Below, piece after piece: positions 1,933 through 61,759 of a stretch of DNA of 62,910 nt (position 1 is the stretch's first letter; every line of letters starts with the position of its first letter). The stretch is from a virus (taxonomy: Duplodnaviria > Caudoviricetes). Location of the stretch: the IMG/VR virus record IMGVR_UViG_3300037522_000055, positions 1 to 62,910 of that record; one strand, given 5' to 3'. A program made the position numbers and the translations under genes. The notes beneath the pieces were generated by a model. It made no database searches. It was not told where the DNA came from and saw only the letters and a program-made list of their open reading frames with translations.

Positions 1933-2514
1933 CTAGGCGCCTCGGAGGTCCGCAAGCGCTTCGTCCGTCGTCGCGTAGAAATTCGGGATCCGACCCGTCG
2001 ACGCGTAGTAGATCAAAGAACCCGCCGTCGCCGATCCCAGTCGCGATTCGAGATCGTATCCCGCTTCGCCCGCGAGATGGATCGCCCATCCCGCGCGGCA
2101 ATGCGTAGTCTCACACGTGTGCCACACGTCCATGTCTAACGATCCGTGCGCGTCCGGGCCGTCTACCATCGCCAGGATCTTGGCGTCCAAGTCGTCAACG
2201 ACCGGGGCGTCGGGCAGTCCGATCGCGTTTCGCAGTTTCGCGTATCGTAGGTTCGCGCCTTCCAGTCGCGCGCCTTCCAGGTTCGCGCCTTCCAGTCGCG
2301 CGCCTTCCAGGTTCGCGCCTTCCAGGTTCGCGTATCGTAGGTTCGCGCCTTCCAGGTTCGCGTATCGTAGGTTCGCGCCTTCCAGGTTCGCGCCTTCCAG
2401 GTTCGCGCCTCGCAGTCGCGCGTATCGCAGGTTCGCGCCTTCCAGGTTCGCGCCTTGCAAGTTCGCGCCTTGTAGTCGCGCGTCGGGTTCGATTGTATAT
2501 CCGTTGATTTTCAT
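1933..2514 (-). CDS. Pentapeptide-repeat protein, type A
   Basis: Same architecture as neighbouring paralogues. Confidence 0.9.
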
Positions 2515-2580
2515 TTTCTTAGGTCCTTTGTTCGGGGTTGTCGCTTCGGGGTTGTCGCTTCGGGGTTAGGCGTCCGACGC

Positions 2581-2790
2581 CTAAAGCCATACCGCGTCAC
2601 GAGCGTCGACGTCCGAGAGATCGCCACAATCAGCTACAGCGCGATCGAAGTCGTCGACGTATGCGGCCCACTCCCCGTTGGGGTCGTTCGCTACAAGCCA
2701 GCCAAGGCATCGTGTGAGCGACCACGCGTCAAGCTCGACGCGGGTGTCCGCGATCTCCAGTGGTCCGCGTTGCGTCTGAATGGTATGCAT
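2581..2790 (-). CDS. Hypothetical early protein
   Basis: Likely start MHTIQTQRG at 2790; tightly packed with 2795..2989. Confidence 0.55.
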   Translation of the reverse strand: MHTIQTQRGPLEIADTRVELDAWSLTRCLGWLVANDPNGEWAAYVDDFDRAVADCGDLSDVDARDAVWL

Positions 2791-2794
2791 CGGG

Positions 2795-2989
2795 CTAGCC
2801 TTCAATCTCGGTGATAAGGTCCATACCGCCGCTCTCAATGGCGCCAGCGAGCGAAACAAGCTCCGGCGTCGACTCGACGGGGGAGAACCAGGGGAAATGC
2901 CGGCCGGCATTCAGGGTCTCGGCCCAAAGGTCGATCTCGCGGGTCTTCGGGGTCTTGATTGCCGTCGGGGTTCCGGGTTTCGTGTCCAT
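2795..2989 (-). CDS. Hypothetical early protein
   Basis: ORF MDTKPG..., first gene of the leftward early unit. Confidence 0.5.
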   Translation of the reverse strand: MDTKPGTPTAIKTPKTREIDLWAETLNAGRHFPWFSPVESTPELVSLAGAIESGGMDLITEIEG

Positions 2990-3114
2990 GAATCTACTAT
3001 AGGGCATCGCCCCGGGCCTGTCTAGAGAAAATCGACATAAATCGCCTTCAATGTCGATTTTTTCTTGGCCGTGGGATTCGGCCCTGCGGCCCTGCCCACG
3101 GCCCTAACCTACGC

Positions 3115-3222
3115 GGCCTGCCCGCGGCCCTGCCCACGGCCCGTGACCACGGCCTGCCCGCGGCCCTGCCCACGGCCCGTGACCACGGCCTGCCCGCGGC
3201 CCTGCCCACGGCCCGTGACCAC
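3115..3222. repeat. 36-bp GC-rich tandem repeat x3
   Basis: GGCCTGCCCGCGGCCCTGCCCACGGCCCGTGACCAC at 3115, 3151, 3187. Confidence 0.95.
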
Positions 3223-3290
3223 GTGGATGTAATGTCTACATATGTCCATCGTCCACTGGGATACTCCCAGAGAGTACTTATCCCTAGTGG

Positions 3291-3337
3291 TCGACACCGA
3301 TCGACATCGATCGACATCGATCGACATCGATCGACAT
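3291..3337. repeat. 10-bp tandem repeat TCGACATCGA
   Basis: About 4.7 copies (first copy TCGACACCGA). Confidence 0.9.
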
Positions 3338-3604
3338 AGGTCTAATTATGCGGTATGGTTAGGAATTTTATTTCTATCGAAACGCAAGACATAGGTCGAC
3401 ACCGATCGTGGTTAAAACACCGCTGAGCGACATCCTGAAATGTAAGTATAACAACAATCTCGGTATTTTAAATAAACGTATTCTGTGGAAAATTACACTA
3501 CACGTTTGAGCTTTTATTTAATGTTTGTATTGTGGCTTACAATTAAATCCTAAACCATATTGCTTTGTAGTAGAGGGCGAGCGCGCCCTGCGCCCACGGA
3601 GGCG

Positions 3605-3693
3605 CCCTTGCCCTCGCCCTCGCCCTTGCCCTCGCCCTCGCCCTGCCCTCGCCCTCGGCCTGCCGCCCTGCCCTCGCCCTGCCCTCGCCCTGC
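3605..3693. repeat. Low-complexity CCCTCG/CCCTG tract
   Basis: Run of 5-6-mer units. Confidence 0.8.
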
Positions 3694-3835
3694 CCGCGTG
3701 ACCATATACATAGGGCAACGTATGGTCACGTATGGTCACTCTAGGTCCGTGGTCCCCACTCACGTGAATCCGCGTGACCATATACATAGGGCAACGTATG
3801 GTCACGTATGGTCACTCTAGGTCCGTGGTCCCCAC
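3694..3835. repeat. 66-bp direct repeat x2 (period 76)
   Basis: CCGCGTGACCATATACATAGGGCAACGTATGGTCACGTATGGTCACTCTAGGTCCGTGGTCCCCAC at 3694 and 3770. Confidence 0.9.
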
Positions 3836-4055
3836 CTCAATGTAAGCAGTGCTTCCATCCGTAACCCTTTGAAATCACTTGGGCATGGGGGTTGAGTCCC
3901 AGTGGGGGCCGAGCCTCCGGGCGGCAGCCCCCGCCACGTAAGGTCACGCGATCGTTGGGATTAGTTGGGGGCTACAGACCGGGGGGGAACCCCCCACCCC
4001 CCTTTCGTCCCCGGGGCCTCGAGTCCCCATGCTCTGGCGTAGGACTAACGGAAAT

Positions 4056-4225
4056 AAATGATCAATTTTCAAATTTCGGATTTCAGGAGAAATGATCAAT
4101 TTTCAAATTTCGGATTTCAGGAGAAATGATCAATTTTCACATTTCGGAATTTTCGAATTCAGGATCAATTTTCAAATTTCGGAATATGAGATTTCGGATT
4201 TCAGGATTTTTCAAAAATCCGAAAT
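4056..4225. repeat. AT-rich 34-bp tandem repeats plus degenerate ATTTCGGA copies (possible origin iterons)
   Basis: AAATGATCAATTTTCAAATTTCGGATTTCAGGAG at 4056 and 4090, partial at 4124, further degenerate copies; AT-rich island in a GC-rich genome. Confidence 0.8.
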
Positions 4226-4350
4226 CACTTGGGTTTTAGGTTTTGTTATCGGCAGCTCGATATTCGTGCCGCCCTGGCGGTCGTCAGGGCTCGAGGTTTC
4301 ACAACTTTCAAAAGTTTCTGAAAGTTTAAAAACAGAAACCAGGTTCTATT

Positions 4351-4404
4351 GTGGGTCCTTTTAGACCCGGGTCTAAAAGGACCCAGGTACTCGAGCTCGC
4401 GCCG
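4351..4404. repeat. 54-bp direct repeat, left copy, containing a perfect 34-bp palindrome
   Basis: TGGGTCCTTTTAGACCCGGGTCTAAAAGGACCCA at 4352-4385; the 54 bp are identical to 6786..6839. Confidence 0.95.
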
Positions 4405-4549
4405 GTCGGCTGCGCCGGGGTCTTTTTAGACCTAACGGCAACTCAACTAGCCACCTACGCGACAAACTGGCACATACCAAAAATCTAAAATGCGAATATT
4501 TAAAAGATCGTGCCGTGGCACGGTACGTGTATTCTTTTTACGTCAACGC

Positions 4550-4635
4550 GGCAGGGCTGGACTAGGCACGGCCGGGCTGGGCATGGCAAGACAAGGAACT
4601 GGCAGTGGGGTGCGATGACTTCAATTCCACTGCAC
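4550..4635 (+). ncRNA. Putative guide-like RNA unit 1: (GGC-NN)x9 plus hairpin tail
   Basis: NN = AG TG TA AC CG TG AT AA AA (two units are GAC instead of GGC), then GGAACTGGCAGTGGGG...TCCACTGCAC. Confidence 0.65.
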
Positions 4636-4697
4636 CAAACGAAGAGCGATTTTGCTCTTCGTTGAAACCCAAGGCAACGTACGAAAGGAACAAGTAA

Positions 4698-5255
4698 ATG
4701 CGCGTAGCAACAGTTGAAATCAAAGGCGTCTCCCCTTATTCCCAGTGTCGGCCCGTGCCCTCGACGAAGGAGCCGAAGGAAACACACGAGGACTTCGAGA
4801 AGCGCACGTGGAAAGAGCGCGCCCACATTGATGACGAAGGGCGCGCGTTCATTCCGCCGATGGCGTGGAAGATTGGGATTGCGGAGGCGGCAAAATTCCT
4901 TTCAATCCAAATCCCCGGAAAAGGGAAGTCGACGTACACCAAACACTTCGAGGCCGGAGTCTTGGTGACCGAGCCGGCGTACATCGGCGCCACCGCGGAC
5001 GACATGCAAAGCGAGTGGTTGTTCGTTCCAGCGACCGGCCGGCGCGGCGATGGTAAACGCGTGTGGAAGTGCTTCCCGAAGTTCTCGAAGTGGGCTTGTA
5101 CTGTCACGTTCTACATCCTCGACGATACGATCACAAAAGACGTGTTCGCCCAGCACATCGAAGAGATGGGCAAGTTCATCGGGGTCGGCCGGTTCCGAGC
5201 ACGCAACAACGGATTCTACGGCCGCTTCGAGGTCATGAAGGTGAACTGGAGTTAA
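4698..5255 (+). CDS. Solo Cas7/RAMP-like protein (candidate Vipr-like effector)
   Basis: N-terminal strand VEIKGVSPY, FIPPMAWKIGIAEAA (RAMP IPxxxxKG-like motif), C-terminal Gly-rich loop GKFIGVGRFRARNNGFYGRFEV; RBS GAAAGGAA. Confidence 0.75.
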   Translation: MRVATVEIKGVSPYSQCRPVPSTKEPKETHEDFEKRTWKERAHIDDEGRAFIPPMAWKIGIAEAAKFLSIQIPGKGKSTYTKHFEAGVLVTEPAYIGATADDMQSEWLFVPATGRRGDGKRVWKCFPKFSKWACTVTFYILDDTITKDVFAQHIEEMGKFIGVGRFRARNNGFYGRFEVMKVNWS

Positions 5256-5259
5256 CCGC

Positions 5260-5455
5260 GGCGAGGCTTGGCGTGGCAAGGCGCGGCTAGGCAGGGCGAG
5301 GCGGGGCAAGGAACTGGCAGTGGGTGCGATGACTTCAATCCCACTGCACTACCTCGGCCCGGCGTGGCATGGCCAGGCGTGGCTTGGCTAGGCAGGGCTC
5401 GGCATGGCGTGGCAAGGAACTGGCAGTGGGTGCGATGACTTCAATCCCACTGCAC
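5260..5455 (+). ncRNA. Putative guide-like RNA units 2 and 3: (GGC-NN)x10 and x12, each with hairpin tail
   Basis: Unit 2 (5260-5309) NN = GA TT GT AA GC TA AG GA GG AA; unit 3 (5356-5415) NN = CC GT AT CA GT TT TA AG TC AT GT AA; tail GGAACTGGCAGTGGGTGCGATGACTTCAATCCCACTGCAC. Confidence 0.7.
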
Positions 5456-5482
5456 TACCCAACACAACTGATAGGAGAGAAC

Positions 5483-5686
5483 ATGGCGGACAAACGAAGC
5501 GTGGAAGAGTGGAAGAACGGCGTGACAATCAAGAAGACTCGGGACGGATATAGTTGGACGGTGGCCGTCGCTGCGGACGCGAACACAGGTGATGCGTTGC
5601 TGGCTGCTACGGAGACAGCGCACACGATCGAGGTGCGGCTGCGCGATATGTACCCGGACGCGGATGGGAAACGGCGCCGGTCATGA
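5483..5686 (+). CDS. Small hypothetical protein inside the repeat locus
   Basis: ATG 5483 with RBS AGGAGAG; 67 aa. Confidence 0.7.
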   Translation: MADKRSVEEWKNGVTIKKTRDGYSWTVAVAADANTGDALLAATETAHTIEVRLRDMYPDADGKRRRS

Positions 5687-5702
5687 CTGAGAAGTAGAAC
5701 GC

Positions 5703-5807
5703 GGCTGGGCGCGGCTTGGCGGGGCTGGGCGAGGCATGGCCTGGCGGGGCTGGGCGAGGCGGGGCAAGGAACTGGCAGTGGGTGCGATGACTTCAATCCC
5801 ACTGCAC
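5703..5807 (+). ncRNA. Putative guide-like RNA unit 4: (GGC-NN)x13 plus tail
   Basis: NN = TG GC TT GG TG GA AT CT GG TG GA GG AA. Confidence 0.7.
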
Positions 5808-5869
5808 CAAGCGAAAAGGAATTCTTCCTCTTCGTTGAAACCCAAGGCAACGTACGAAAGGAAATAACA

Positions 5870-6385
5870 GTGAGTATCAAAGGAAAAGGAACCGGTGGGG
5901 TACCCCATCCCGATGCGCAAATTCTTGTGAGTTTGCTGCGAGAGGTCGAGCCTGGAGGGGTTGTGACCTACAAAGCGCTGAACAGCGCAATCGCAGGCGA
6001 CGTGCAAGGGCGATCCCGAAGTCGCCTTGTTACGGCGCGTCGTATCGCACAAAATCAACACGCTATTACGTTCGGGACTCTCACCAACGAAGGACTTCGC
6101 CGGCTGACCAGCAGCGAGCTCGCGACCAGCGACGCTGAAAAGCAAACAAGTTCGATCGGGCGTAAGGCCCGGCGGGCTTCAAAGCGCTTACAGTGCGCGG
6201 ACCAATCGGAACTTTCATCGGAAGAGCAGGTATCACTCGTGCTTCACTCCAGTGTACAGTTCGTCGTCTCGCACACGACGAAGAAACGATCTCGCGCTCG
6301 GCTCGAAGCCAAGCTCGAGAAGTCCCAAGCAAAGGCAATCTCCCTGAACGAGACGTTGCTGTTGTTCGGGGACACCGAGAAGTAG
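5870..6385 (+). CDS. Basic hypothetical protein (possible winged-helix DNA-binding accessory)
   Basis: GTG start after the same hairpin/RBS leader as the Cas7-like gene; K/R-rich. Confidence 0.7.
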   Translation: MSIKGKGTGGVPHPDAQILVSLLREVEPGGVVTYKALNSAIAGDVQGRSRSRLVTARRIAQNQHAITFGTLTNEGLRRLTSSELATSDAEKQTSSIGRKARRASKRLQCADQSELSSEEQVSLVLHSSVQFVVSHTTKKRSRARLEAKLEKSQAKAISLNETLLLFGDTEK

Positions 6386-6390
6386 AACGC

Positions 6391-6790
6391 GGCTGGGCAG
6401 GGCTTGGCAGGGCTGGGCAGGGCGAGGCAGGGCGAGGCAAGGCGTGGCGAGGCATGGCAAGGAATTGGCAGTGGACTTCAATCCCACTGCACTACCTCGG
6501 CCCGGCTGGGCAGGGCGAGGCATGGCTCGGCATGGCAAGGCGGGGCAAGGCAAGGAACTGGCAGTGGGTGCGATGACTTCAATCCCACTGCGCTACCTCG
6601 GCAGGGCCAGGCGTGGCGAGGCATGGCATGGCTGGGCTCGGCATGGCGTGGCGAGGCATGGCAAGGAACTGGCAGTGGGTGCGATGACTTCAATCCCACT
6701 GCACTACCTCGGCCCGGCGTGGCTGGGCATGGCGTGGCACGGCTGGGCTCGGCATGGCAGGGCGAGGCATGGCAAGGAACTGGCAGTGGG
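6391..6790 (+). ncRNA. Putative guide-like RNA units 5-8: (GGC-NN)x14, x11, x13, x13 with tails
   Basis: Tracts at 6391-6460, 6499-6553, 6600-6664, 6711-6775, linked by tail plus TACCTC; unit 5 tail has an internal deletion and unit 8 tail is truncated by the palindromic repeat. Confidence 0.7.
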
Positions 6791-6839
6791 TCCTTTTAGA
6801 CCCGGGTCTAAAAGGACCCAGGTACTCGAGCTCGCGCCG
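6786..6839. repeat. 54-bp direct repeat, right copy (palindromic)
   Basis: Identical to 4351..4404. Confidence 0.95.
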
Positions 6840-6889
6840 ATACGAAACGTCGGCTTTTAACTAGAAGGCCCGACGTTTCGTATCGGCGC
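6834..6889. other. 20-bp perfect inverted repeat (hairpin)
   Basis: GCGCCGATACGAAACGTCGG ... CCGACGTTTCGTATCGGCGC. Confidence 0.85.
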
Positions 6890-7091
6890 ACTACCTCAGT
6901 TACCTTTACTAGCGAACTAGTGTAGTAACAACTCTGTTACCAAGGGAGCGTCCGAGTTACTGTAACGTGCCAGAACTAGCACTTAAAGTGTGTATTCGAG
7001 CACGTTACGACAAGTATTGGCGTGTTACCAGAACAGTAACGGAACCGCCGTCTCGGCAACCCCGTGCCCAGGCGTGCTACACTAAGTTATT

Positions 7092-7379
7092 ATGACTAAT
7101 TCGAAACCTGATGAGGCGAGTCCTGAGATCGTCGTACTACCACCAACACCTACTCCCGATCAGGTGGCGAAGTTTGTAATCGCGATTATGCACGGACAGG
7201 ATGTTGTTGTTGACGGCGTGGCTGTAAAGCCGTCGGTAAGCGATCAAATACAGGCTTGTGTAATCGTAGCTAAGTATTCAACGCCTTCAGTGTCGGACGT
7301 CGTGACTGTAAAGCCGTCGGTAAAAGATCAACTACAAGCTTGCGAACTCGTGCTGCGGCGATCGTTCGAACAATCCTAA
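7092..7379 (+). CDS. Small protein paralogous to the downstream TerS-like gene
   Basis: IAIMHGQDV and KPSV(S/K)DQ(I/L)QAC twice, versus IAIMRGQGV and PSVKDQLKAW; extended -10-like TGCTACACT upstream. Confidence 0.65.
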   Translation: MTNSKPDEASPEIVVLPPTPTPDQVAKFVIAIMHGQDVVVDGVAVKPSVSDQIQACVIVAKYSTPSVSDVVTVKPSVKDQLQACELVLRRSFEQS

Positions 7380-7888
7380 TGTCCCACACTAAAGATAAGA
7401 CCGAGCTCGTCGACGCGCCGCAGCGAGAATCCGTCGCCGAGGATGGGACCAAGCGCATCAACGGGCGCTTCGCTCCCGGCGTCAGTGGCAACCCAGGTGG
7501 CCGCGGGAAGCGGGCGTTCAACCTAACGAAGATCATCCAGGCCCGCACCGATCCCGACGAGATGTACAACATCCTGATCGCGATCATGCGTGGTCAGGGC
7601 GTCCGCGTCATGGACGGCGGATCGTTCGCGCCGGAGGGACCCATCAACTCAACGGTGCCGATTCAGATGCCGTCGGTGAAGGACCAGTTGAAGGCGTGGC
7701 AGATGTTGGCCGAGTGGGGCTTCGTCAAACCGCCGACGCAAAAGCAAGTGTCGATCGACGACAATCGATCGCTGCCCCGGGCCGGATTCGACGAGCGAAA
7801 GCTTACCGGCGACCAGCTCGCCACGCTGGCCGGAATCCTTGACTCGGCGCGGTCACTGCCGGCGCATGAGGACGGGGACGACGACTAG
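7379..7888 (+). CDS. Putative terminase small subunit (DUF5681-like)
   Basis: GRFAPGVSGNPGGR motif; lies upstream of TerL. Confidence 0.65.
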   Translation: MSHTKDKTELVDAPQRESVAEDGTKRINGRFAPGVSGNPGGRGKRAFNLTKIIQARTDPDEMYNILIAIMRGQGVRVMDGGSFAPEGPINSTVPIQMPSVKDQLKAWQMLAEWGFVKPPTQKQVSIDDNRSLPRAGFDERKLTGDQLATLAGILDSARSLPAHEDGDDD

Positions 7889-7910: not shown

Positions 7911-8633
7911 TCAAAGAACCTCGATCCGTCGAGCTCGATACTTATCCCCCGCGCGCAGGACGTCTGATACACGGGCGCGGACTCGTACGAACGCCGAGTC
8001 GGTCGCCAGTCCATACTGCGCCTCGAGCCAATCCATTGAAGCGAGGTAGATGCCCGGATGACATGACGAGCCATCGTCCACGGAGAACACCGGGGCGACG
8101 TAGGTCTGACCGGGTTCGTACACGTTGTTGCCGACGTGCATGGATCTGGCAGTGCGCCAGGCGTAGACGTAGCCGTTTTTTACCTCGCCGAGTTCACTTA
8201 GGTTTTGATCGGGGATGATCGCCTCGGGATCCAGACACGTGCCTTGTAGGATCGCGCTTCGCAGGATCGCGCTTCGCAGGATCGCGCTTCGCAGGATCGC
8301 GCTTCGCAGGTTCGCGTCTTGTAGGATCGCGCCTACCAGGTTCGCGCCTCGCAGGTTCGCGTCTCGCAGGTTCGCGTCTCGCAGGTTCGCGTCTCGCAGG
8401 TACGCGCCTTCCAGGATCGCGCCTTGCAAGTCCGCGCCTTGTAGGTTCGCGCCTCGCAGGTCCGCGCCTTCCAGGATCGCGCCTTGCAAGTCCGCGCCTT
8501 GCAGGTTCGCGCCTTCCAGGTCCGCGCCTCGCAGGTACGCGCCTTGCAAGTCCGCGCCGTACAGGTTCGCGCCTTGTAGTAGCGCGCCTTGTAGTCGCGC
8601 GTCGGGTTCGATTGTATATCCGTTGATTTTCAC
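7911..8633 (-). CDS. Pentapeptide-repeat protein, type B C-terminal domain
   Basis: [10 protein letters not shown] plus repeats plus GTCLDPEAIIPDQ...CHPGIYL...GDKYRARRIEVL. Confidence 0.9.
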   Translation of the reverse strand: MKINGYTIEPDARLQGALLQGANLYGADLQGAYLRGADLEGANLQGADLQGAILEGADLRGANLQGADLQGAILEGAYLRDANLRDANLRDANLRGANLVGAILQDANLRSAILRSAILRSAILRSAILQGTCLDPEAIIPDQNLSELGEVKNGYVYAWRTARSMHVGNNVYEPGQTYVAPVFSVDDGSSCHPGIYLASMDWLEAQYGLATDSAFVRVRARVSDVLRAGDKYRARRIEVL

Positions 8634-8854
8634 GGCGACACCTTGTCAGCCGGGCACTCCCACGGCCGAACGCAAATTCCGTGGCAGCACACCGCGTTTG
8701 CGCCAGGGCCATAGGGACAGATAGGCGCGGTAAGACAGGTGAGAACCTCCGGCTCGGGCTCGACTTGCCCGGCATCAACACCGGGGGCAGTCGGGCCTCC
8801 TCCAGAGAAACAGGCCGACAGAAAAAGGGCGATGATTACGATTAGTGTTTTCAT
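8630..8854 (-). CDS. Small Cys-rich lipoprotein
   Basis: MKTLIVIIALFLSAC lipobox; Cys-rich C-terminus. Confidence 0.65.
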   Translation of the reverse strand: MKTLIVIIALFLSACFSGGGPTAPGVDAGQVEPEPEVLTCLTAPICPYGPGANAVCCHGICVRPWECPADKVSP

Positions 8855-9046
8855 ATTTTTATGTCCTTGCATGTTGTGTGCCAACGTGTAAACGATTGTA
8901 AAGACGTCGTCTCCGTGCCAACCTGTCACACAGGTGGCAACTCGAGTCGCCCGTCATTTACTAAATGCACCGACGCACGTCGCCATCCCCGCACCCGGCG
9001 CACTGTTGGCCAGGGTCGACAGATAGGATGTTGACCAGTGTATCCT

Positions 9047-9259
9047 TCACAAAAATCTCAACGGGCGAAATAGCAGTTCACTTGCTGCCACAGCGTTTCC
9101 GTTGATTTCAAATCCGATGCTGGTCGCACCTAGCTCCTCTAGGATTTTAGGTAGGTCATCTTTATGAATCACAGGCCCCACGGCCGCGAATAGGTCTGCG
9201 TTACCGCATATTCCGGCGACGATTAGTGCCGTTTGGTTTGTCTGCTTTTCGTACCACAT
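9047..9259 (-). CDS. Hypothetical protein
   Basis: ATG overlaps the stop of the upstream pentapeptide gene. Confidence 0.5.
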   Translation of the reverse strand: MWYEKQTNQTALIVAGICGNADLFAAVGPVIHKDDLPKILEELGATSIGFEINGNAVAASELLFRPLRFL

Positions 9260-9921
9260 CAGAGAACCTCGATCCGGCGAGCTCGATACTTATCCCCCGT
9301 GCGCAGGACGTCTGATACACGGGCGCGGACTCGTACGAACGCCGAGTCGGTCGCCAGTCCATACTGCTCCTCGAGCCAATCCATTGAAGCGAGGTAGATA
9401 CCCGGGTGACACGACGACATCTCATCCACGGAGAACACCGGGGCGACGTAGGTCTGACCGGGTTCGTACACGTTGTTGCCGACGTGCATGGATTTGGCAG
9501 TGCGCCAGGCGTAGACGTAGCCGTTTTTTACCTCGCCGAGTTCACTTAGGTTTTGATCGGGGATGATCGCCTCGGGATCCAGACACGTGCCTTCCAGGTC
9601 CGCGCTTCGCAGGATCGCGCTTCGCAGGATCGCGCCTCGCAGGTTCGCGCCTTCCAGGATCGCGCCTTGCAGGTTCGCGCCTTCCAGGATCGCGCCGTAC
9701 AGGTCCGCGCCTTCCAGGTCCGCGCGTCGCAGGTCCGCGCCTCGCAGGCTCGCGACTCGCAGGTCCGCGCGTCGCAGGTCCGCGCCTTGCAGGTTCGCGC
9801 CGTACAGGTACGCGCCTTGTAGGTTCGCGCCTTGCAGGTCCGCGTCTACCAGGTCCGCGCGTCGCAGGTTCGCGCCGTACAGGTTCGCGCCGGGTTCGAT
9901 CGTGTATCCGTTGGCTTTCAT
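9259..9921 (-). CDS. Pentapeptide-repeat protein, type B
   Basis: Start MKANGYTIEP at 9921; C-terminal domain nearly identical to 7911..8633. Confidence 0.9.
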   Translation of the reverse strand: MKANGYTIEPGANLYGANLRRADLVDADLQGANLQGAYLYGANLQGADLRRADLRVASLRGADLRRADLEGADLYGAILEGANLQGAILEGANLRGAILRSAILRSADLEGTCLDPEAIIPDQNLSELGEVKNGYVYAWRTAKSMHVGNNVYEPGQTYVAPVFSVDEMSSCHPGIYLASMDWLEEQYGLATDSAFVRVRARVSDVLRTGDKYRARRIEVL

Positions 9922-9934
9922 TTTCTTAGGTCCT

Positions 9935-9950
9935 TGCACGTCCCGTGCCA
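9935..9950 (-). promoter_or_regulatory. Sigma54-like -24/-12 element
   Basis: TGGCACGGGACGTGCA (GG-N10-GC); identical at 45671..45686, variant at 8868..8883. Confidence 0.5.
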
Positions 9951-10201
9951 GCGCAACAAATAAGTGTTTCCCGACACATACGTGTACGCCCCGTGACAAC
10001 CTGTCACGACGGTGGCTACTACAGTATCCGCTAGCACGCGGCCCAGGGGGATATCGGATGAATATAGATCACGACAGCTCCTTGCGCGTTTGTTTGCAGA
10101 TGCGACTCGCGAACCGACGACGCGGCGCCGGGCGACGACGCGTAGAGCCCGATGAGTTCTGCCAAGAATGCGGGCATATGCGACATGATACTATCAACCA
10201 A

Positions 10202-10826: not shown

Positions 10827-13571
10827 ATGCGAGATTTTTCCGCGGAGCTAGAAGCTGCACTACGTGTGGGGCCGCCCCCGGCGGCCGGTCCGGCACCGTC
10901 ACGGGCTCCGGCGCCTTCGGCGCCGTCGCTTGAGCCAACCCTAGACGACGTCGCTCGGCAGTTTGGGGTCCCAAAAGAAGAGCTTCAACGTCGTGTTCAC
11001 GCCGAGAGGCTGCGGCGATCGTTCGCTCTGTTTTTTCGCGAGTCGTGGCCCGTGCTCGAGCCGTCGACGCCGCTGTCGTGGAACTGGCACATCGAAAGAG
11101 TGTGTGAACACATCCAGCACCTCATCGAAGATCACATCAAGAAGAAGGCCGACCCTAACTATGTAATGGAGTACAGCAACTCCGTAATCAACGTGCCGCC
11201 GGGGACGGCCAAGAGCCGTATGTTGATGGTCGCGGCGCCGGCCTGGGCGTGGGAGAACTGGCCAGGGCTGAAGTTCCTTTGTCTGTCGGGCAACCCCAGC
11301 AACGTGACTCGTGACGCCGCGTTCTGCCGAGACCTCGTACAAAGCAATTGGTATCAGGAAACATTCCGTCCCGACTGGGAGCTTCGCGAAGATCAAAACG
11401 CCGTCACGCGATACACAAACACAAAGGGCGGCGAGCGCATCTCGAAGGGCATCACTGCCAAATTGACCGGGGATCGGGGTGACTGTGTCGCAGGGGAGAC
11501 GTTAATCGCCACTGAGCTAGGCGACGTTCCTATTGAGGCACTGCACTCGATGACGAGTCCGCCCAGAGTATGGTCTTTCAATCACGAAACTAATGAGTGC
11601 GAGTTGCGGCGGATTGTTGCGTCCAGACGAATTACGCGTAGCGGGATAGTAGATGTTTGTACATCCGCCGGTAATACGTTAAGATGTACGAATGACCACA
11701 AAATCCACGGCGAAAAAGGATATACAAAAGCAGCGTGTATCGCCGGGTGCGAAGTGTCCGTCATGCGGCGGCGCGACGAGCCTTCGAATCGGGAAGCCTA
11801 TTCGGTGCAACAACTGCTCAATAGCAACCCTTACATGCGCAACATGCGGCAAGGACTTTCAGAGAGAGGCGGCAGAGGAAGCGAAGCGTTTAAGACGCGG
11901 AGCGAAGAGCGGTCCTTTTTGCAGTACGAAATGCAAGAGGCCGTCGCACAATCCCAGCCCGATTATATTGAGCTGCGAGAGCTGCGGGAAGAACTTTCGG
12001 CCGCGCTCAAAAAAGAAAACAAGGCGTACCTGTTCGACAGTTTGTCGAGACAAACTGGCTGTAAAGTCTCGCTCTCGCAAGACGCTACCAGACAGAGCGT
12101 GCGACTTTTGCCTTGTGATGATGCGAGTAAGTTCCAAGCGTCGGCGATATTGCAGCAAGACGTGCCAGAACCGAGCGCACTCAAAGCGAATGGAAGGCAA
12201 GGGGAACTCACACTACAAGAAGGCGTCGAGCCGATATGGTCTGGCCTATCAGATGGCTCCGCTGATTCGAGAACGCGACGGATGGCGATGTACAACATGC
12301 GGAGCAACACGCGGCGGAAGAGCGCTGACGGTACACCATATAAATCACAAACCGGTCGACAACCGATCGGAAAATCTGATTACGCTGTGCGATGCATGTC
12401 ATATGACACACCACAAATCGAAGGAACCGCCGTTCTGTCTTCTGACGAAACGTCTGCAAGCCGACGCGGCGAGAAGATCGCGGTCTATGACATCCAAGTT
12501 GAAAAAAACCATAACTTCTTTGCTGGCGGACTACTCGTCCACAACTGCATCCTCTTAGACGATCCCAACGACGTCAAAGAAGCCGACTCGGAAAATATCC
12601 GAAAGGGAATCAACTCCGACTGGGACAGCTCGATTTACAACCGTGTAAATCACTACGCCGCCGCGGTGCGTATGATCATCCAGCAGCGCGTTCACGAAGA
12701 GGACTTCTCCGGGCACGTGCTAGGTAAAGGTAACTGGGTTCACTTCAAGCTTCCGCTCGAGTACGAGACGAAGCAGTTATGTGAGTGCCACTCGTGCAAG
12801 TCGGGAATCCTCGGCGACTACGACGAGCGCACCGAAGAGGGACAAGTCCTGCACCCAGATCGCTTCACCGACGAAGTTATCGAAGATTTGAAAATCACAC
12901 TTGGCGAAGAAGGGTACGCGGGGCAGTGTCAGCAAAATCCAGATCCCGCGTCCGGCGGAAAGTTCAAGTGGACGTACTGGCGCTTCTGGAAAAAGGACGG
13001 CGACCCTGATATCGGCGCGAGGCCGGAGCGTTGTTACAGCGGCGGAGCACGGATACTTCCCGAGGAGTTCGATGACATCATCATGTCGACGGACTGCGCG
13101 TTCCGAGGCAAAGCGAAGAACGATCGCGTCGCCACGTTTGCCATCGCCAGAAAGGGCGCCGATCGCTTCATCTTAGATCGTGACTGCGACAACATGGACT
13201 TCGGCGAGACGAAAGACTCAATTCGTCACATGTCGAAGCGCGTGCCGCGCGCCGGCGCAAAACTGGTTGAGGGGAAGGCAAACGGTGACGCCGTCGTCAA
13301 CGATCTTCGAAACGAGATTACAGGGATGATTATCCGAGACCCTAAAGGCGGTAAGGAGTCCCGCGCTTCGATACTCAAACCCGTCGTGCAGGCGGGCAAC
13401 TACTACTTGCCCGACGGCGCCCCTTGGCTGGATGATTTCTGCCATGAGTTCGCGCGCTTTCCGCGAGGTAAGTTCGACGATCAGATCGACGCCGTATCAC
13501 AGGCCGAGGCGTATTTCCAGGAAGAGGTCGAGGACGAGTTGTTCGTTGCAGGGTCGCTGTATACGCGGTAG
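10827..13571 (+). CDS. terL: Terminase large subunit, intein-containing
   Basis: Walker A INVPPGTAKS, LTGDRGD/CILLDDP Walker B after splicing, IIQQRVHEEDFSG, nuclease motifs STDCAF, VEGKANG, FPRGKFDDQIDA. Confidence 0.95.
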   Translation: MRDFSAELEAALRVGPPPAAGPAPSRAPAPSAPSLEPTLDDVARQFGVPKEELQRRVHAERLRRSFALFFRESWPVLEPSTPLSWNWHIERVCEHIQHLIEDHIKKKADPNYVMEYSNSVINVPPGTAKSRMLMVAAPAWAWENWPGLKFLCLSGNPSNVTRDAAFCRDLVQSNWYQETFRPDWELREDQNAVTRYTNTKGGERISKGITAKLTGDRGDCVAGETLIATELGDVPIEALHSMTSPPRVWSFNHETNECELRRIVASRRITRSGIVDVCTSAGNTLRCTNDHKIHGEKGYTKAACIAGCEVSVMRRRDEPSNREAYSVQQLLNSNPYMRNMRQGLSERGGRGSEAFKTRSEERSFLQYEMQEAVAQSQPDYIELRELREELSAALKKENKAYLFDSLSRQTGCKVSLSQDATRQSVRLLPCDDASKFQASAILQQDVPEPSALKANGRQGELTLQEGVEPIWSGLSDGSADSRTRRMAMYNMRSNTRRKSADGTPYKSQTGRQPIGKSDYAVRCMSYDTPQIEGTAVLSSDETSASRRGEKIAVYDIQVEKNHNFFAGGLLVHNCILLDDPNDVKEADSENIRKGINSDWDSSIYNRVNHYAAAVRMIIQQRVHEEDFSGHVLGKGNWVHFKLPLEYETKQLCECHSCKSGILGDYDERTEEGQVLHPDRFTDEVIEDLKITLGEEGYAGQCQQNPDPASGGKFKWTYWRFWKKDGDPDIGARPERCYSGGARILPEEFDDIIMSTDCAFRGKAKNDRVATFAIARKGADRFILDRDCDNMDFGETKDSIRHMSKRVPRAGAKLVEGKANGDAVVNDLRNEITGMIIRDPKGGKESRASILKPVVQAGNYYLPDGAPWLDDFCHEFARFPRGKFDDQIDAVSQAEAYFQEEVEDELFVAGSLYTR
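11484..12545 (+). mobile_element. Intein in TerL (354 aa)
   Basis: Block A CVAGETLI, block B LRCTNDHKI, blocks F/G VYDIQVEKNHNFFAGGLLVHN followed by extein Cys. Confidence 0.93.
11692..12558 (+). CDS. HNH homing endonuclease with Zn-finger repeats, in the +1 frame inside the intein
   Basis: RERDGWRCTTCG...LTVHHINHKPVDNRSENLITLCDACHMTHH; several CxxC...CSxxC repeats. Confidence 0.85.
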   Translation: MTTKSTAKKDIQKQRVSPGAKCPSCGGATSLRIGKPIRCNNCSIATLTCATCGKDFQREAAEEAKRLRRGAKSGPFCSTKCKRPSHNPSPIILSCESCGKNFRPRSKKKTRRTCSTVCRDKLAVKSRSRKTLPDRACDFCLVMMRVSSKRRRYCSKTCQNRAHSKRMEGKGNSHYKKASSRYGLAYQMAPLIRERDGWRCTTCGATRGGRALTVHHINHKPVDNRSENLITLCDACHMTHHKSKEPPFCLLTKRLQADAARRSRSMTSKLKKTITSLLADYSSTTASS

Positions 13572-44952: not shown

Positions 44953-45657
44953 TCAAGAACACTCGGCCTTGGTGAGATAGAAGTAGATCCCCGGAGCGCA
45001 TTCGAGTCGGCGATCATCGCAGTAGTGATTCGCTCGGACAACTTCTCCGGTGGCGTATCTTGTTTTTCCGCCGTCGTGTCGGTGACGATGAAGCAAGTCC
45101 ACGTCAGGGGTGATAACACGCACGTACTCGGCCCGACACTTGTACGATCCGATTCCGTTCGTTCTCCTGGCGTCGGCTGGGACTTCTACCTCTATGACGC
45201 GTATGTTGCGACCGTCGTTGACTTGCTTCCAGGCGCGGAACGATCCGGTACAAGGACATCGCTCTGGATTGAGCTCTGCGCCTCGCAGGTTCGCGCCTTG
45301 CAGGTTCGCGTTTCGCAGGTACGCGTCTCGCAGGTACGCGCCTTCCAGGATCGCGCCTTGCAAGTCCGCGCCTTGCAGGTCCGCGCCTCGCAGGCTCGCG
45401 ACTCGCAGGTTCGCGTTTCGCAGGTCCGCGCCTCGCAGGTACGCGCCTTCCAGGATCGCGCCTTGCAAGTCCGCGCCGCTCAGGTTCGCGCCTTCCAGGT
45501 CCGCGTATCGCAGGTTCGCGTATCGCAGGTTCGCGCCTTCCAGGTACGCGCGTCGCAGGTCCGCGCCTTGTAGGTCCGCGCCTTGCAGGTTCGCGCCGTA
45601 CAGGTTCGCGCCGTACAGGTTCGCGCCGGGTTCGATCGTGTATCTGTTGGCTTTCAT
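44953..45657 (-). CDS. Pentapeptide-repeat protein, type C (DUF5758-like) C-terminus
   Basis: MKANRYTIEP plus repeats plus GSFRAWK...KCRAEYVRV...ECAPGIYFYLT. Confidence 0.85.
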   Translation of the reverse strand: MKANRYTIEPGANLYGANLYGANLQGADLQGADLRRAYLEGANLRYANLRYADLEGANLSGADLQGAILEGAYLRGADLRNANLRVASLRGADLQGADLQGAILEGAYLRDAYLRNANLQGANLRGAELNPERCPCTGSFRAWKQVNDGRNIRVIEVEVPADARRTNGIGSYKCRAEYVRVITPDVDLLHRHRHDGGKTRYATGEVVRANHYCDDRRLECAPGIYFYLTKAECS

Positions 45658-56325: not shown

Positions 56326-57039
56326 TTACGTGAGCGACTCGATCCACGCAACGGCGACCGCTGCGACTTGCACGAGCTCTTTCTTCAAGTCGGCGCCGGT
56401 CGTGTCGTTGGCCAGCTTGTTGCGCTCGAGGACGGCGCGCGCTGCTTCGCCAAACTCTTCGGCCAGCACTGTGAGTTTTTCCGCGTCCGACAACTCCGAA
56501 TCCGCACACGTATAGGGGAAGCGACCGGCCGCTTTTAGATCGTTCTGACGGTTGCGCTCGGCGACAATCAGAGATAGTGCTAGCGCGCGTCGCAGGCTGT
56601 TGTGAAGCAGATTGTCTGCCGGGCCGTCGACCATTGCCAGGATCTTGGCGTCCAAATCGTCGACGATCGGTGCGTCGGGCAATCCAATCGCGCCTCGCAG
56701 GCTCGCGACTCGCAGGTTCGCGCCGTACAGGTTCGCGTCTTGCAGGTTCGCGCGTCGCAGGTCCGCGCCTTCCAGGTCCGCGTATCGCAGGTTCGCGCCT
56801 TCCAGGTTCGCGCCTCGCAGGTCCGCGTCTTGTAGGTACGCGTATCGCAGGTTCGCGTATCGCAGGTTCGCGCCTTCCAGGTCCGCGCCTTCCAGGTCCG
56901 CGCCTTCCAGTCGCGCGCCTTCCAGTCGCGCGCCTTCCAGGATCGCGTCTCGCAGGTCCGCGCCTCGCAGGTCCGCGTCTACCAGGTCCGCGCCTTCCAG
57001 GATCGCGCCGGGTTCGATCGTATATCCGTTGACGTTCAT
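56326..57039 (-). CDS. Pentapeptide-repeat protein fused to a MazG-like NTP pyrophosphatase
   Basis: Repeats plus partial type A linker plus LAEEFGEAARA...KELVQVAAVAVAW. Confidence 0.8.
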   Translation of the reverse strand: MNVNGYTIEPGAILEGADLVDADLRGADLRDAILEGARLEGARLEGADLEGADLEGANLRYANLRYAYLQDADLRGANLEGANLRYADLEGADLRRANLQDANLYGANLRVASLRGAIGLPDAPIVDDLDAKILAMVDGPADNLLHNSLRRALALSLIVAERNRQNDLKAAGRFPYTCADSELSDAEKLTVLAEEFGEAARAVLERNKLANDTTGADLKKELVQVAAVAVAWIESLT

Positions 57040-61180: not shown

Positions 61181-61759
61181 CTAGGCGCCTCGGAGGTCCG
61201 CAAGCGCTTCGTCCGTCGTCGCGTAGAAATCTGGCACGCGGCCCGTCGACGCGTAGTAGATCAAAGAACCCGCCGTCGCCGATCCCAGTCGCGATTCGAG
61301 ATCGTATCCCGCTTCGCCCGCGAGATGGATCGCCCATCCCGCGCGGCAATGCGTAGTCTCACACGTATGCCACAAGGTCATATCCAGCGATCCGTGCGCG
61401 TCCGGGCCGTCTACCATCGCCAGGATCTTGGCGTCCAAGTCGTCAACGACCGGGGCGTAGGGCAGTCCGATCGCGCCTTGCAGGTTCGCGCCTTGTAGGA
61501 TCGCGCCCAGTCGCGCGCCTCGCAGGTTCGCGCCTTCCAGTCGCGCGCCTTCCAGGTCCGCGCCTCGCAGGTCCGCGCCTTGTAGGTCCGCGCGTCGCAG
61601 GTCCGCGCCTTGTAGGTACGCGCCGTACAGGTACGCGACTCGCAGGTCCGCGCGTCGCAGGTCCGCGCCTTCCAGGTTCGCGCCTTTCAGGTTCGCGCCT
61701 TCGAGTAGCGCGTACCGCAGGTCCGCGTCGGGTTCGATTGCATATCCGTTGATTTTCAT
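61181..61759 (-). CDS. Pentapeptide-repeat protein, type A
   Basis: Start [10 protein letters not shown] at 61759. Confidence 0.9.

Follow-up and report, generated by a model that had tools for sequence, protein, structure and literature searches.

A very probable VIPR locus with eight guide units in the genome of a tailed phage

What would a phage do with eight runs of a nearly fixed trinucleotide, GGC, each copy followed by two nucleotides that are free to vary, all gathered around a gene of 185 codons? The runs lie at positions 4550-6790 of IMG/VR virus record IMGVR_UViG_3300037522_000055, the whole of which (62,910 bases) is called here the window. The original prediction took them for the guides of an RNA-guided system distinct from CRISPR and saw a kinship to the VIPR-type systems of phages. 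That kinship is borne out by a profile match to the Vipr protein of Escherichia phage SUSP1, by the linkage of similar tracts to homologues of the gene, and by the published papers, and I propose that 4550-6790 is, very probably, a VIPR locus in a tailed phage of ~63 kb. It joins a known kind as a new example, because its protein, its repeat units, the linkage between them, its accessory gene, and its genomic context all fit published VIPR systems.

VIPR (Viral Interference Programmable Repeat) was described in 2026 as a system found mostly in viral genomes, in which a Vipr protein, a RAMP of ~20 kDa, is encoded together with a vap gene and with guide RNAs called vrRNAs, each made of 9-16 YNNGG repeats, with conserved GGY and hypervariable NN, and an invariant tail of ~40 nt (10.64898/2026.04.26.720920). 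One Vipr protomer is reported to occupy each repeat, hiding GGY and leaving NN to pair with DNA, every third base of which is skipped, and assembly of the filament is reported to start from the 3' end (10.64898/2026.04.26.720927). The tracts of SUSP1 and of P. fulva are reported to be transcribed, to co-purify with Vipr, and to have been resolved by cryogenic electron microscopy (cryo-EM; 10.64898/2026.04.26.720920; 10.64898/2026.04.26.720927). VIPR in E. coli, according to a later report, silences a satellite (10.64898/2026.10.15.759431), and another counts 99 VIPR-like array clusters from 1.3 terabases (10.64898/2026.10.21.760802). Of the features that define VIPR, those found here are Vipr homology, a RAMP fold, GGC-NN units, a tail, a minimal locus, and a viral context.

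The protein comes first. Its gene, vipr, occupies 4698-5255 on the + strand, as do all features of the locus described below. Pfam has no match for the 185-amino-acid product, nor for the two other open reading frames (ORFs) discussed here, ORF67 and ORF171, and PHROGs offers only an unnamed family, phrog_4652 (E 9.2e-12). The family is nonetheless large: of 3285 candidates drawn from a word index, 3219 proteins pass E <= 1e-3, and when the search is exhaustive the same threshold admits 1113 clusters (at 50% identity), 320 of which reach E <= 1e-30. Relatives are present in metagenome-assembled genomes of many phyla. When a profile built from 85 family members is compared with the sequences of the PDB, the match is to 36pp_D, 'SUSP1 Vipr protein' (E 9.2e-13, profile positions 14-182), and the second-best match, at E 1.2, is noise.

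The original prediction ascribed to this ORF a RAMP-like, Cas7-like fold and left it to be checked by structure prediction, and on this AlphaFold2, Foldseek and VIA-align agree. The AlphaFold2 model (pLDDT 97.3, pTM 0.90) gives 137 Foldseek matches at E <= 1e-3 in a copy of the PDB ending 8 April 2026, the best at E 2.5e-7; all the matches listed are CRISPR RAMPs, headed by Cas7 of type VII and by backbone subunits of the type III Cmr and Csm complexes. VIA-align places 34 chains at Z >= 8, among them 6s6b_I (Z 12.0), the type VII Cas7 8yhd_A (Z 11.7) and Csm3 6ae2_B (Z 11.7, with a root-mean-square deviation of 2.6 over 143 residues). The 185-residue ORF is thus a Vipr protein, a minimal RAMP with a Cas7-like fold.

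The protein's loop rich in glycine (G-loop) reads G162-V-G-R-F-R167...G172..G175-R-F, and G162, G164, G172 and G175 are invariant or nearly so in the family. In SUSP1, W178 and R179 are reported to stack on G2 and hold Y3 of the repeat, and D177 and R138 to be essential (10.64898/2026.04.26.720927). The residue aligned with W178 is F166, at a position that is aromatic in 77 of the 85 family sequences, and R179 aligns with R167, which is R in 83 of them. A thumb can be inferred from the model, in which a predicted hairpin at 104-129 aligns with the segment of SUSP1 Vipr that bears R138. The loop here has four residues more than that of SUSP1.

If the protein is a Vipr, then guides should lie nearby, and the tracts have the required form. 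A search of the window with the regular expression (G[GA]C-NN)n finds 95 pentamers in eight tracts, all on the + strand; the - strand has no such tract, nor has any other part of the 62,910 bases. The triplet is GGC in 93 of the 95 pentamers, and both exceptions, GAC, are in unit 1. Six GGC-NN pentamers in a row are matched 51 times, against 0 in 100 shuffles that preserve dinucleotides, so scan and shuffles agree with the original count of eight strict units with a period of 5 nt and 95 pentamers in all. At NN positions before the last, all 16 dinucleotides occur. The last NN is AA in eight of eight units, just as had been claimed in saying that every unit closes in GGC-AA (GAC-AA in unit 1), and through this GGCAA or GACAA all eight tracts run into GGAAYTGGCAGTGG. 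The junction with the tail, GGCAAGGAAYTGGCAGTGG, occurs eight times (seven exact, one with a single mismatch) against 0 expected.

From left to right, unit 1 (4550-4635) has 9 pentamers at 4550-4594, two of them GAC, and a 41-nt tail. Between it and vipr, at 4636-4697, come a hairpin (AACGAAGAGC..GCTCTTCGTT) and a leader that contains a ribosome-binding site. Downstream of vipr lie unit 2 (5260-5349; 10 pentamers at 5260-5309), unit 3 (5356-5455; 12 at 5356-5415), ORF67 (5483-5686; 67 amino acids, with a GGAG ribosome-binding site and uncertain coding status), and unit 4 (5703-5807; 13 at 5703-5767). At 5808-5869 the hairpin and leader recur, now 5' of the accessory gene ORF171 (5870-6385; 171 amino acids). 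Then come unit 5 (6391-6492; 14 pentamers at 6391-6460), unit 6 (6499-6593; 11 at 6499-6553), unit 7 (6600-6704; 13 at 6600-6664), and unit 8 (6711-6790; 13 at 6711-6775). Each of vipr and ORF171 is therefore preceded by a vrRNA unit, a hairpin, and a 39-nt leader that carries the ribosome-binding site, the two copies of the leader being 97% identical. The claim that the units flank the 185-residue ORF was right as to placement but overlooked ORF67 and ORF171.

A tail of ~40 nt with an 8-bp stem had been claimed for all units, and this is only partly so. Units 2, 3, 4, 6 and 7 have the intact 40-nt tail, in which GCAGTGGG and CCCACTGC pair as an 8-bp stem around a loop of 15 nt. The tail of unit 1 has a variant stem containing G-U pairs; that of unit 5, 32 nt long, is missing 8 nt of the loop and has a stem of 7 bp; and that of unit 8 is truncated to 15 nt, retaining only GGAACTGGCAGTGGG before a 54-nt repeat with a 34-nt palindrome begins. 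The hairpin folds, all told, in seven of the eight units. Rfam gives no match at E <= 1 over 3500-7500, and there is therefore no hammerhead ribozyme between units.

Might the tracts instead be translated? Open frames do cross the arrays. Two of them span the downstream array (6404-6799, 131 amino acids, and 6444-6860, 138 amino acids), a third runs over 5369-5686, and one gene caller stretches a call of 105 amino acids from 5369 over unit 3; automatic annotation will probably report such frames as spurious Gly/Ala/Arg-rich hypothetical proteins. To suppose that they really encode low-complexity proteins of this composition is hardly credible. No peptide could go on repeating in a single frame at a period of 5 nt; what is conserved is the nucleotide sequence, GGC being constant and NN variable; the tails form RNA hairpins; and a known noncoding RNA has the same architecture.

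If tract and protein work together, they should be found together in other genomes. From 268 relatives of Vipr in viral contigs, 80 loci were retained for counting tracts. Of the 80, 44 have strict (GGY-NN)>=5 tracts in the orientation of vipr; such tracts number 93 in this orientation and 0 in the other. If the score is relaxed, so that eight pentamers need only 21 or more of 24 GGY matches, 54 loci have a tract on the vipr strand and 2 on the other, and with 20 of 24 the figures become 63 and 8. Some of the loci that lack tracts have degenerate repeats (L008, for example) or are cut by the ends of contigs. In the relatives, too, the last one to four units of a tract are [GA][GA]CAA, after which comes GG; the sequence beyond differs from the tail found here. 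Homologues that stood apart from GGY-NN tracts had been named as what would undo the original prediction, and the strand count, 93 to 0, shows the linkage instead.

The same count bears on a second alternative, that the GGC-NN tracts act as DNA, serving as iterons for the winged-helix protein described below, as recombination sites, or as G-rich structures, while the RAMP protein has some other RNA partner. The adjoining region, 3000-4300, is indeed rich in other tandem repeats and G-rich tracts. Yet like tracts beside homologous proteins in SUSP1 and P. fulva are transcribed, bound by Vipr, and resolved by cryo-EM, the orientation of tracts relative to vipr is strictly biased among relatives, and each tract is followed by a tail of the RNA-hairpin type. 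I consider a DNA role for the tracts very improbable, and continue with the view that they are templates for vrRNAs.

VIPR loci carry a vap gene, and ORF171 seems to fill that place. Relatives of it (BLASTP, E <= 1e-3) are found in 73 of 118 related loci, and among the 40 listed nearly all lie directly 3' of vipr on the same strand; the other flanking genes are not common to the related loci, and ORF67 has no relative in any of the 118. In a word-index search ORF171 and ORF67 each retrieve only themselves. The model of ORF171 (pLDDT 91.8) has the element order of a winged helix, helix-strand-helix-helix-strand-strand, at its N terminus, followed by four long helices. Foldseek with this model finds no match at E <= 1e-3, and the weak matches (E 0.04-0.5) are mostly to winged-helix regulators (GntR, CodY, PurR, MarR, PadR). 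Three of 25 family members touch the DNA-binding domain of the methylguanine methyltransferase family in Pfam (best E 0.0025). Comparison by hhalign of the ORF171 family with the gene 3' of the vipr homologue of phage LESphi2 gives a probability of 80% and E 1.5e-5. All of this fits a conserved, winged-helix, vap-like accessory gene, with a predicted role in binding DNA.

What of the genome around the locus? The record is linear and estimated to be 81% complete. It encodes a large terminase, portal, capsid protease, major capsid protein, tape measure and tail proteins, as well as a family A polymerase, a helicase and nucleases, and judged by these genes the window is a siphophage of roughly 63 kb. 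Phages of 62-69 kb whose recorded hosts are Pseudomonas, Roseobacter, Arthrobacter and Rhizobium have capsid and portal proteins ~40% identical to its own; in genome contigs the capsid protein is without relatives. PADLOC, run on 64 ORFs, detects no Cas protein, its sole matches being a methyltransferase and a generic DEDDh exonuclease (for which the PADLOC model is labelled CRISPR-associated), and Tandem Repeats Finder and a repeat scan find no CRISPR-like array in the window. The absence of cas genes and classical spacers noted originally thus holds in both respects.

A guide ought to have a target, and the eight guides were compared with several collections, with one base skipped between NN pairs (NN-x-NN-x) unless otherwise stated. 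In the phage's own genome no guide is matched at 80% or more of its NN positions, whether 0, 1 or 2 bases are skipped; the best match, 0.78 of NN positions, belongs to the shortest guide and is inside the range of shuffled guides. This agrees with the lack of self-targeting in the VIPR loci studied (10.64898/2026.04.26.720920). No guide has a target above the null in the 118 related loci (81 + 37). The scans of collections covered guides 3, 4, 5, 7 and 8: exact gapped patterns have 0 matches in viral contigs for each of guides 8, 7, 4, 3 and 5, and 0 in metagenome contigs for guides 8 and 4, and guide 8, with up to three mismatches allowed, has 0 matches in the complete records of 46 related viruses. 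Such searches have little power, because exact matches were required, which overlooks the 80-95% matches accepted in the VIPR papers, and because they were not aimed at the genomes of a host.

The case for a VIPR locus must therefore bear the fact that no search found a natural target, and there are other observations that weigh against it. Taken as a single sequence, the protein matches SUSP1 Vipr at E 0.21 only. In the alignment, the counterparts of two residues essential for silencing in SUSP1 differ: D177 is replaced by R165, at a position that varies among the 85 family members (54 have R), and R138 by F126, though the K or R found at position 124 in 84 of the 85 sequences might substitute for the latter. 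Unit 8 has no tail hairpin and that of unit 5 is shortened. The structure of the tail is without covariation support, because its pattern has 0 matches in other viral contigs, a collection from which near relatives of the window were possibly excluded. Finally, a promoter scan finds no sigma-70-like site on the + strand, and a search of RNA runs listed none that contains the stretch.

Several of these points would be explained if the locus were a decayed or silent remnant of VIPR, with genes and repeats in place but a system that no longer assembles or has no target. The empty target searches, the damaged tails of units 5 and 8, and the lack of conservation at the counterparts of D177 and R138 all speak for this idea. 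However, both ORFs are intact, each with a ribosome-binding site in the shared leader, and GGC has been kept in 93 of 95 pentamers while NN varies. The differing residues are typical of the family of 1113 clusters rather than damage confined to this copy, and the failure to find targets comes from searches of low power. A remnant is, I think, unlikely, though less so than the two alternatives already considered, and an intact VIPR locus remains the reading I follow.

How might such a locus work? By analogy with SUSP1 and P. fulva, the + strand would be transcribed and cut into vrRNAs of roughly 70-110 nt. Each pentamer would be bound by one Vipr protomer, GGC being hidden through the aromatic residue at 166 and R167, with NN left exposed, and the hairpin of the 3' tail would cap the filament, target engagement running 3' to 5'. 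The original prediction had likewise proposed one subunit per GGC-NN pentamer and NN pairs that make up a discontinuous code. The string of NN would read double-stranded DNA as NN-x-NN-x, with footprints of 26-41 bp, the skipped base often falling at the wobble position of codons. Binding, aided by the winged-helix Vap, would shut off the transcription of a rival mobile element, be it another phage, a prophage or a satellite, and the eight different guides would cover several targets or several variants of a target.

It is tempting to go further, in view of how the locus is bounded. Perfect 54-nt direct repeats at 4351-4404 and 6786-6839, each with the 34-nt palindrome within it, bracket the 2.4-kb VIPR cassette exactly. 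The right copy, which stands in place of the tail hairpin of unit 8 and overlaps what is left of its tail, is followed by a 20-bp inverted repeat at 6834-6889. The palindrome has 0 matches in other viral contigs (again with the near relatives of the window possibly excluded), no empty site of the cassette was seen, and none of the sediment contigs, which are short and of depth 2-5, joins across the 54-nt repeats. The idea that VIPR loci generally have such flanking repeats was rejected, since a non-tract flanking repeat of at least 24 nt is found in only 4 of 117 related loci.

Variants of the locus also occur in sediment metagenomes, as single contigs of runs X1 and X2 at depth 2-5, and these are to be taken as hints only. 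One has an extra pentamer in unit 1, after 4573, and changes of NN at 4578 and 4583. The variant restores the canonical stem of unit 1 by a compensating pair, a 1-nt deletion at 4607 and T>C at 4626. Other contigs have joints between the copies of the leader (4666/5843) and between units 3 and 6 (5368/6524), which may be effects of the repeats on assembly.

From these observations one could build a bolder model, in which the locus belongs to a sub-lineage of VIPR that works somewhat differently from SUSP1. It has four parts. The two guanines may be read by other G-loop and thumb chemistry (R165, the four-residue insertion, K/R124); the constant CAA repeats at the 3' end and a plain hairpin, with no pseudoknot, may cap and nucleate the filament; guides and effector may together form a 2.4-kb mobile cassette bounded by the perfect, palindrome-bearing repeats; and guides may change without Cas1, by duplication of units, gain and loss of pentamers, and point changes of NN, as the low-depth metagenome variants hint. 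That all four should hold together is possible but doubtful.

The surroundings of the cassette deserve description in their own right. The region 3000-4300 is rich in repeats and apparently noncoding: there are 36-nt repeats with GGG runs at 3081-3223, a 10-nt repeat, TCGACATCGA, in 4.7 copies at 3291-3337, a 76-nt repeat in 1.9 copies, with GTGACCATACG motifs, at 3694-3835, and an AT-rich 34-nt repeat in 3.7 copies at 4056-4183. A role as an origin, or in packaging or regulation, is possible. On the - strand at 3603-3695, opposite to the VIPR locus and 850 nt upstream of it, is a G-rich tract of ~16 GGGCA, GGGCGA and GGGCAA units with mixed periods of 5 and 6 nt, which ends in GGCAAGGGCG and has a short GC hairpin after it. 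It resembles a vrRNA yet is out of the 5-nt register; a guide that has decayed, a decoy and a G-quadruplex motif are all conceivable.

Elsewhere in the window there are at least nine stretches with a period of 15 nt (within 74-2514, 7911-9999, 45278-45627, 56688-57009 and 61472-61701), which encode pentapeptide-repeat proteins, four of the ORFs matching Pfam PF00805 with E down to 1.5e-50. Four of the stretches flank the VIPR locus, and two related VIPR loci (L073 and L054) likewise have pentapeptide-repeat neighbours. A link to interference with DNA-binding systems is possible, because such proteins can mimic DNA. The large terminase gene, 10827-13571, contains an intein: Pfam Intein_splicing covers residues 247-573, with the PHROG terminase matches falling on either side.

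VIPR is described as a minimal form of RNA-guided DNA recognition with no requirement for a protospacer-adjacent motif, and is proposed to predate CRISPR (10.64898/2026.04.26.720920; 10.64898/2026.04.26.720927). The locus leaves that published picture unchanged. What it offers is a clean environmental example from a sediment phage, with eight guides, a Vipr distant from that of SUSP1, a different tail, and a clearly bounded cassette, on which the generality of the GGY pocket and of the one-base-skip rule, the role of the tail, and the change of guide sets could be tested.

How, then, does it stand among the systems already known? It has much in common with the type II VIPR of SUSP1 (PDB 36pp), which is likewise carried by a phage genome, has a small Vipr RAMP of ~20 kDa and no reported self-targets, and is built of GGY-NN pentamers (9-16 per unit there, 9-14 here) with an invariant 3' tail of ~40 nt. 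Both loci have one vrRNA upstream of vipr, an array downstream, and an accessory gene predicted to bind DNA. They differ in that SUSP1 has four vrRNAs, whereas the eight here are interleaved with genes, each of which has a vrRNA, a hairpin and the shared leader in front of it. The G-loop here has its four-residue insertion, with R165 for D177 and F126 for R138, and the tail folds as a simple hairpin, 8 bp closing a loop of 15 nt, in which no pseudoknot was identified. Among the VIPR types (I-VII), layout and winged-helix vap look like those of type II, though types VI and VII also carry DNA-binding vaps (10.64898/2026.04.26.720920).

The sole cultured phage whose protein matches the 185-residue Vipr (28% identity, E 2e-5) is the Pseudomonas phage vB_Pae_LESphi2 (OQ594955.1; L006), whose record does not annotate the VIPR locus at 2477-3956 as such. 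That locus has GGY-NN tracts with tails at 2477-2526, 2628-2647 and 2722-2771, a vipr homologue at 2884-3468 (annotated as hypothetical), and a vap-like gene at 3465-3956. The tracts with tails and the downstream gene related to ORF171 are shared with the locus here. In LESphi2, however, all vrRNAs lie upstream of vipr, the tail begins with GGGCTG, and the locus adjoins the cI/cro switch of a temperate phage, whereas the present one is upstream of packaging genes. Its layout matches that reported for the prophage system of P. fulva, and on this basis I would place LESphi2 in the P. fulva clade.

A further comparison is with class 1 CRISPR-Cas, whose backbone RAMPs (Csm3/Cmr4 and type VII Cas7) have the same fold as the Vipr studied here (Z 10-12), in which an RRM core is combined with a loop rich in glycine and a hairpin resembling a thumb. 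Vipr and the CRISPR backbone RAMPs are both reported to polymerise along a guide RNA with a fixed period (10.64898/2026.04.26.720920; 10.64898/2026.04.26.720927). The locus differs from class 1 systems in lacking a CRISPR array, cas1/2/3/5/6/10, and a second RRM. The two also part in the way the guide is held and read: VIPR has a period of 5 nt with three bases hidden, where class 1 has a period of 6 nt with one base flipped, and the guide that VIPR presents to its target is noncontiguous.

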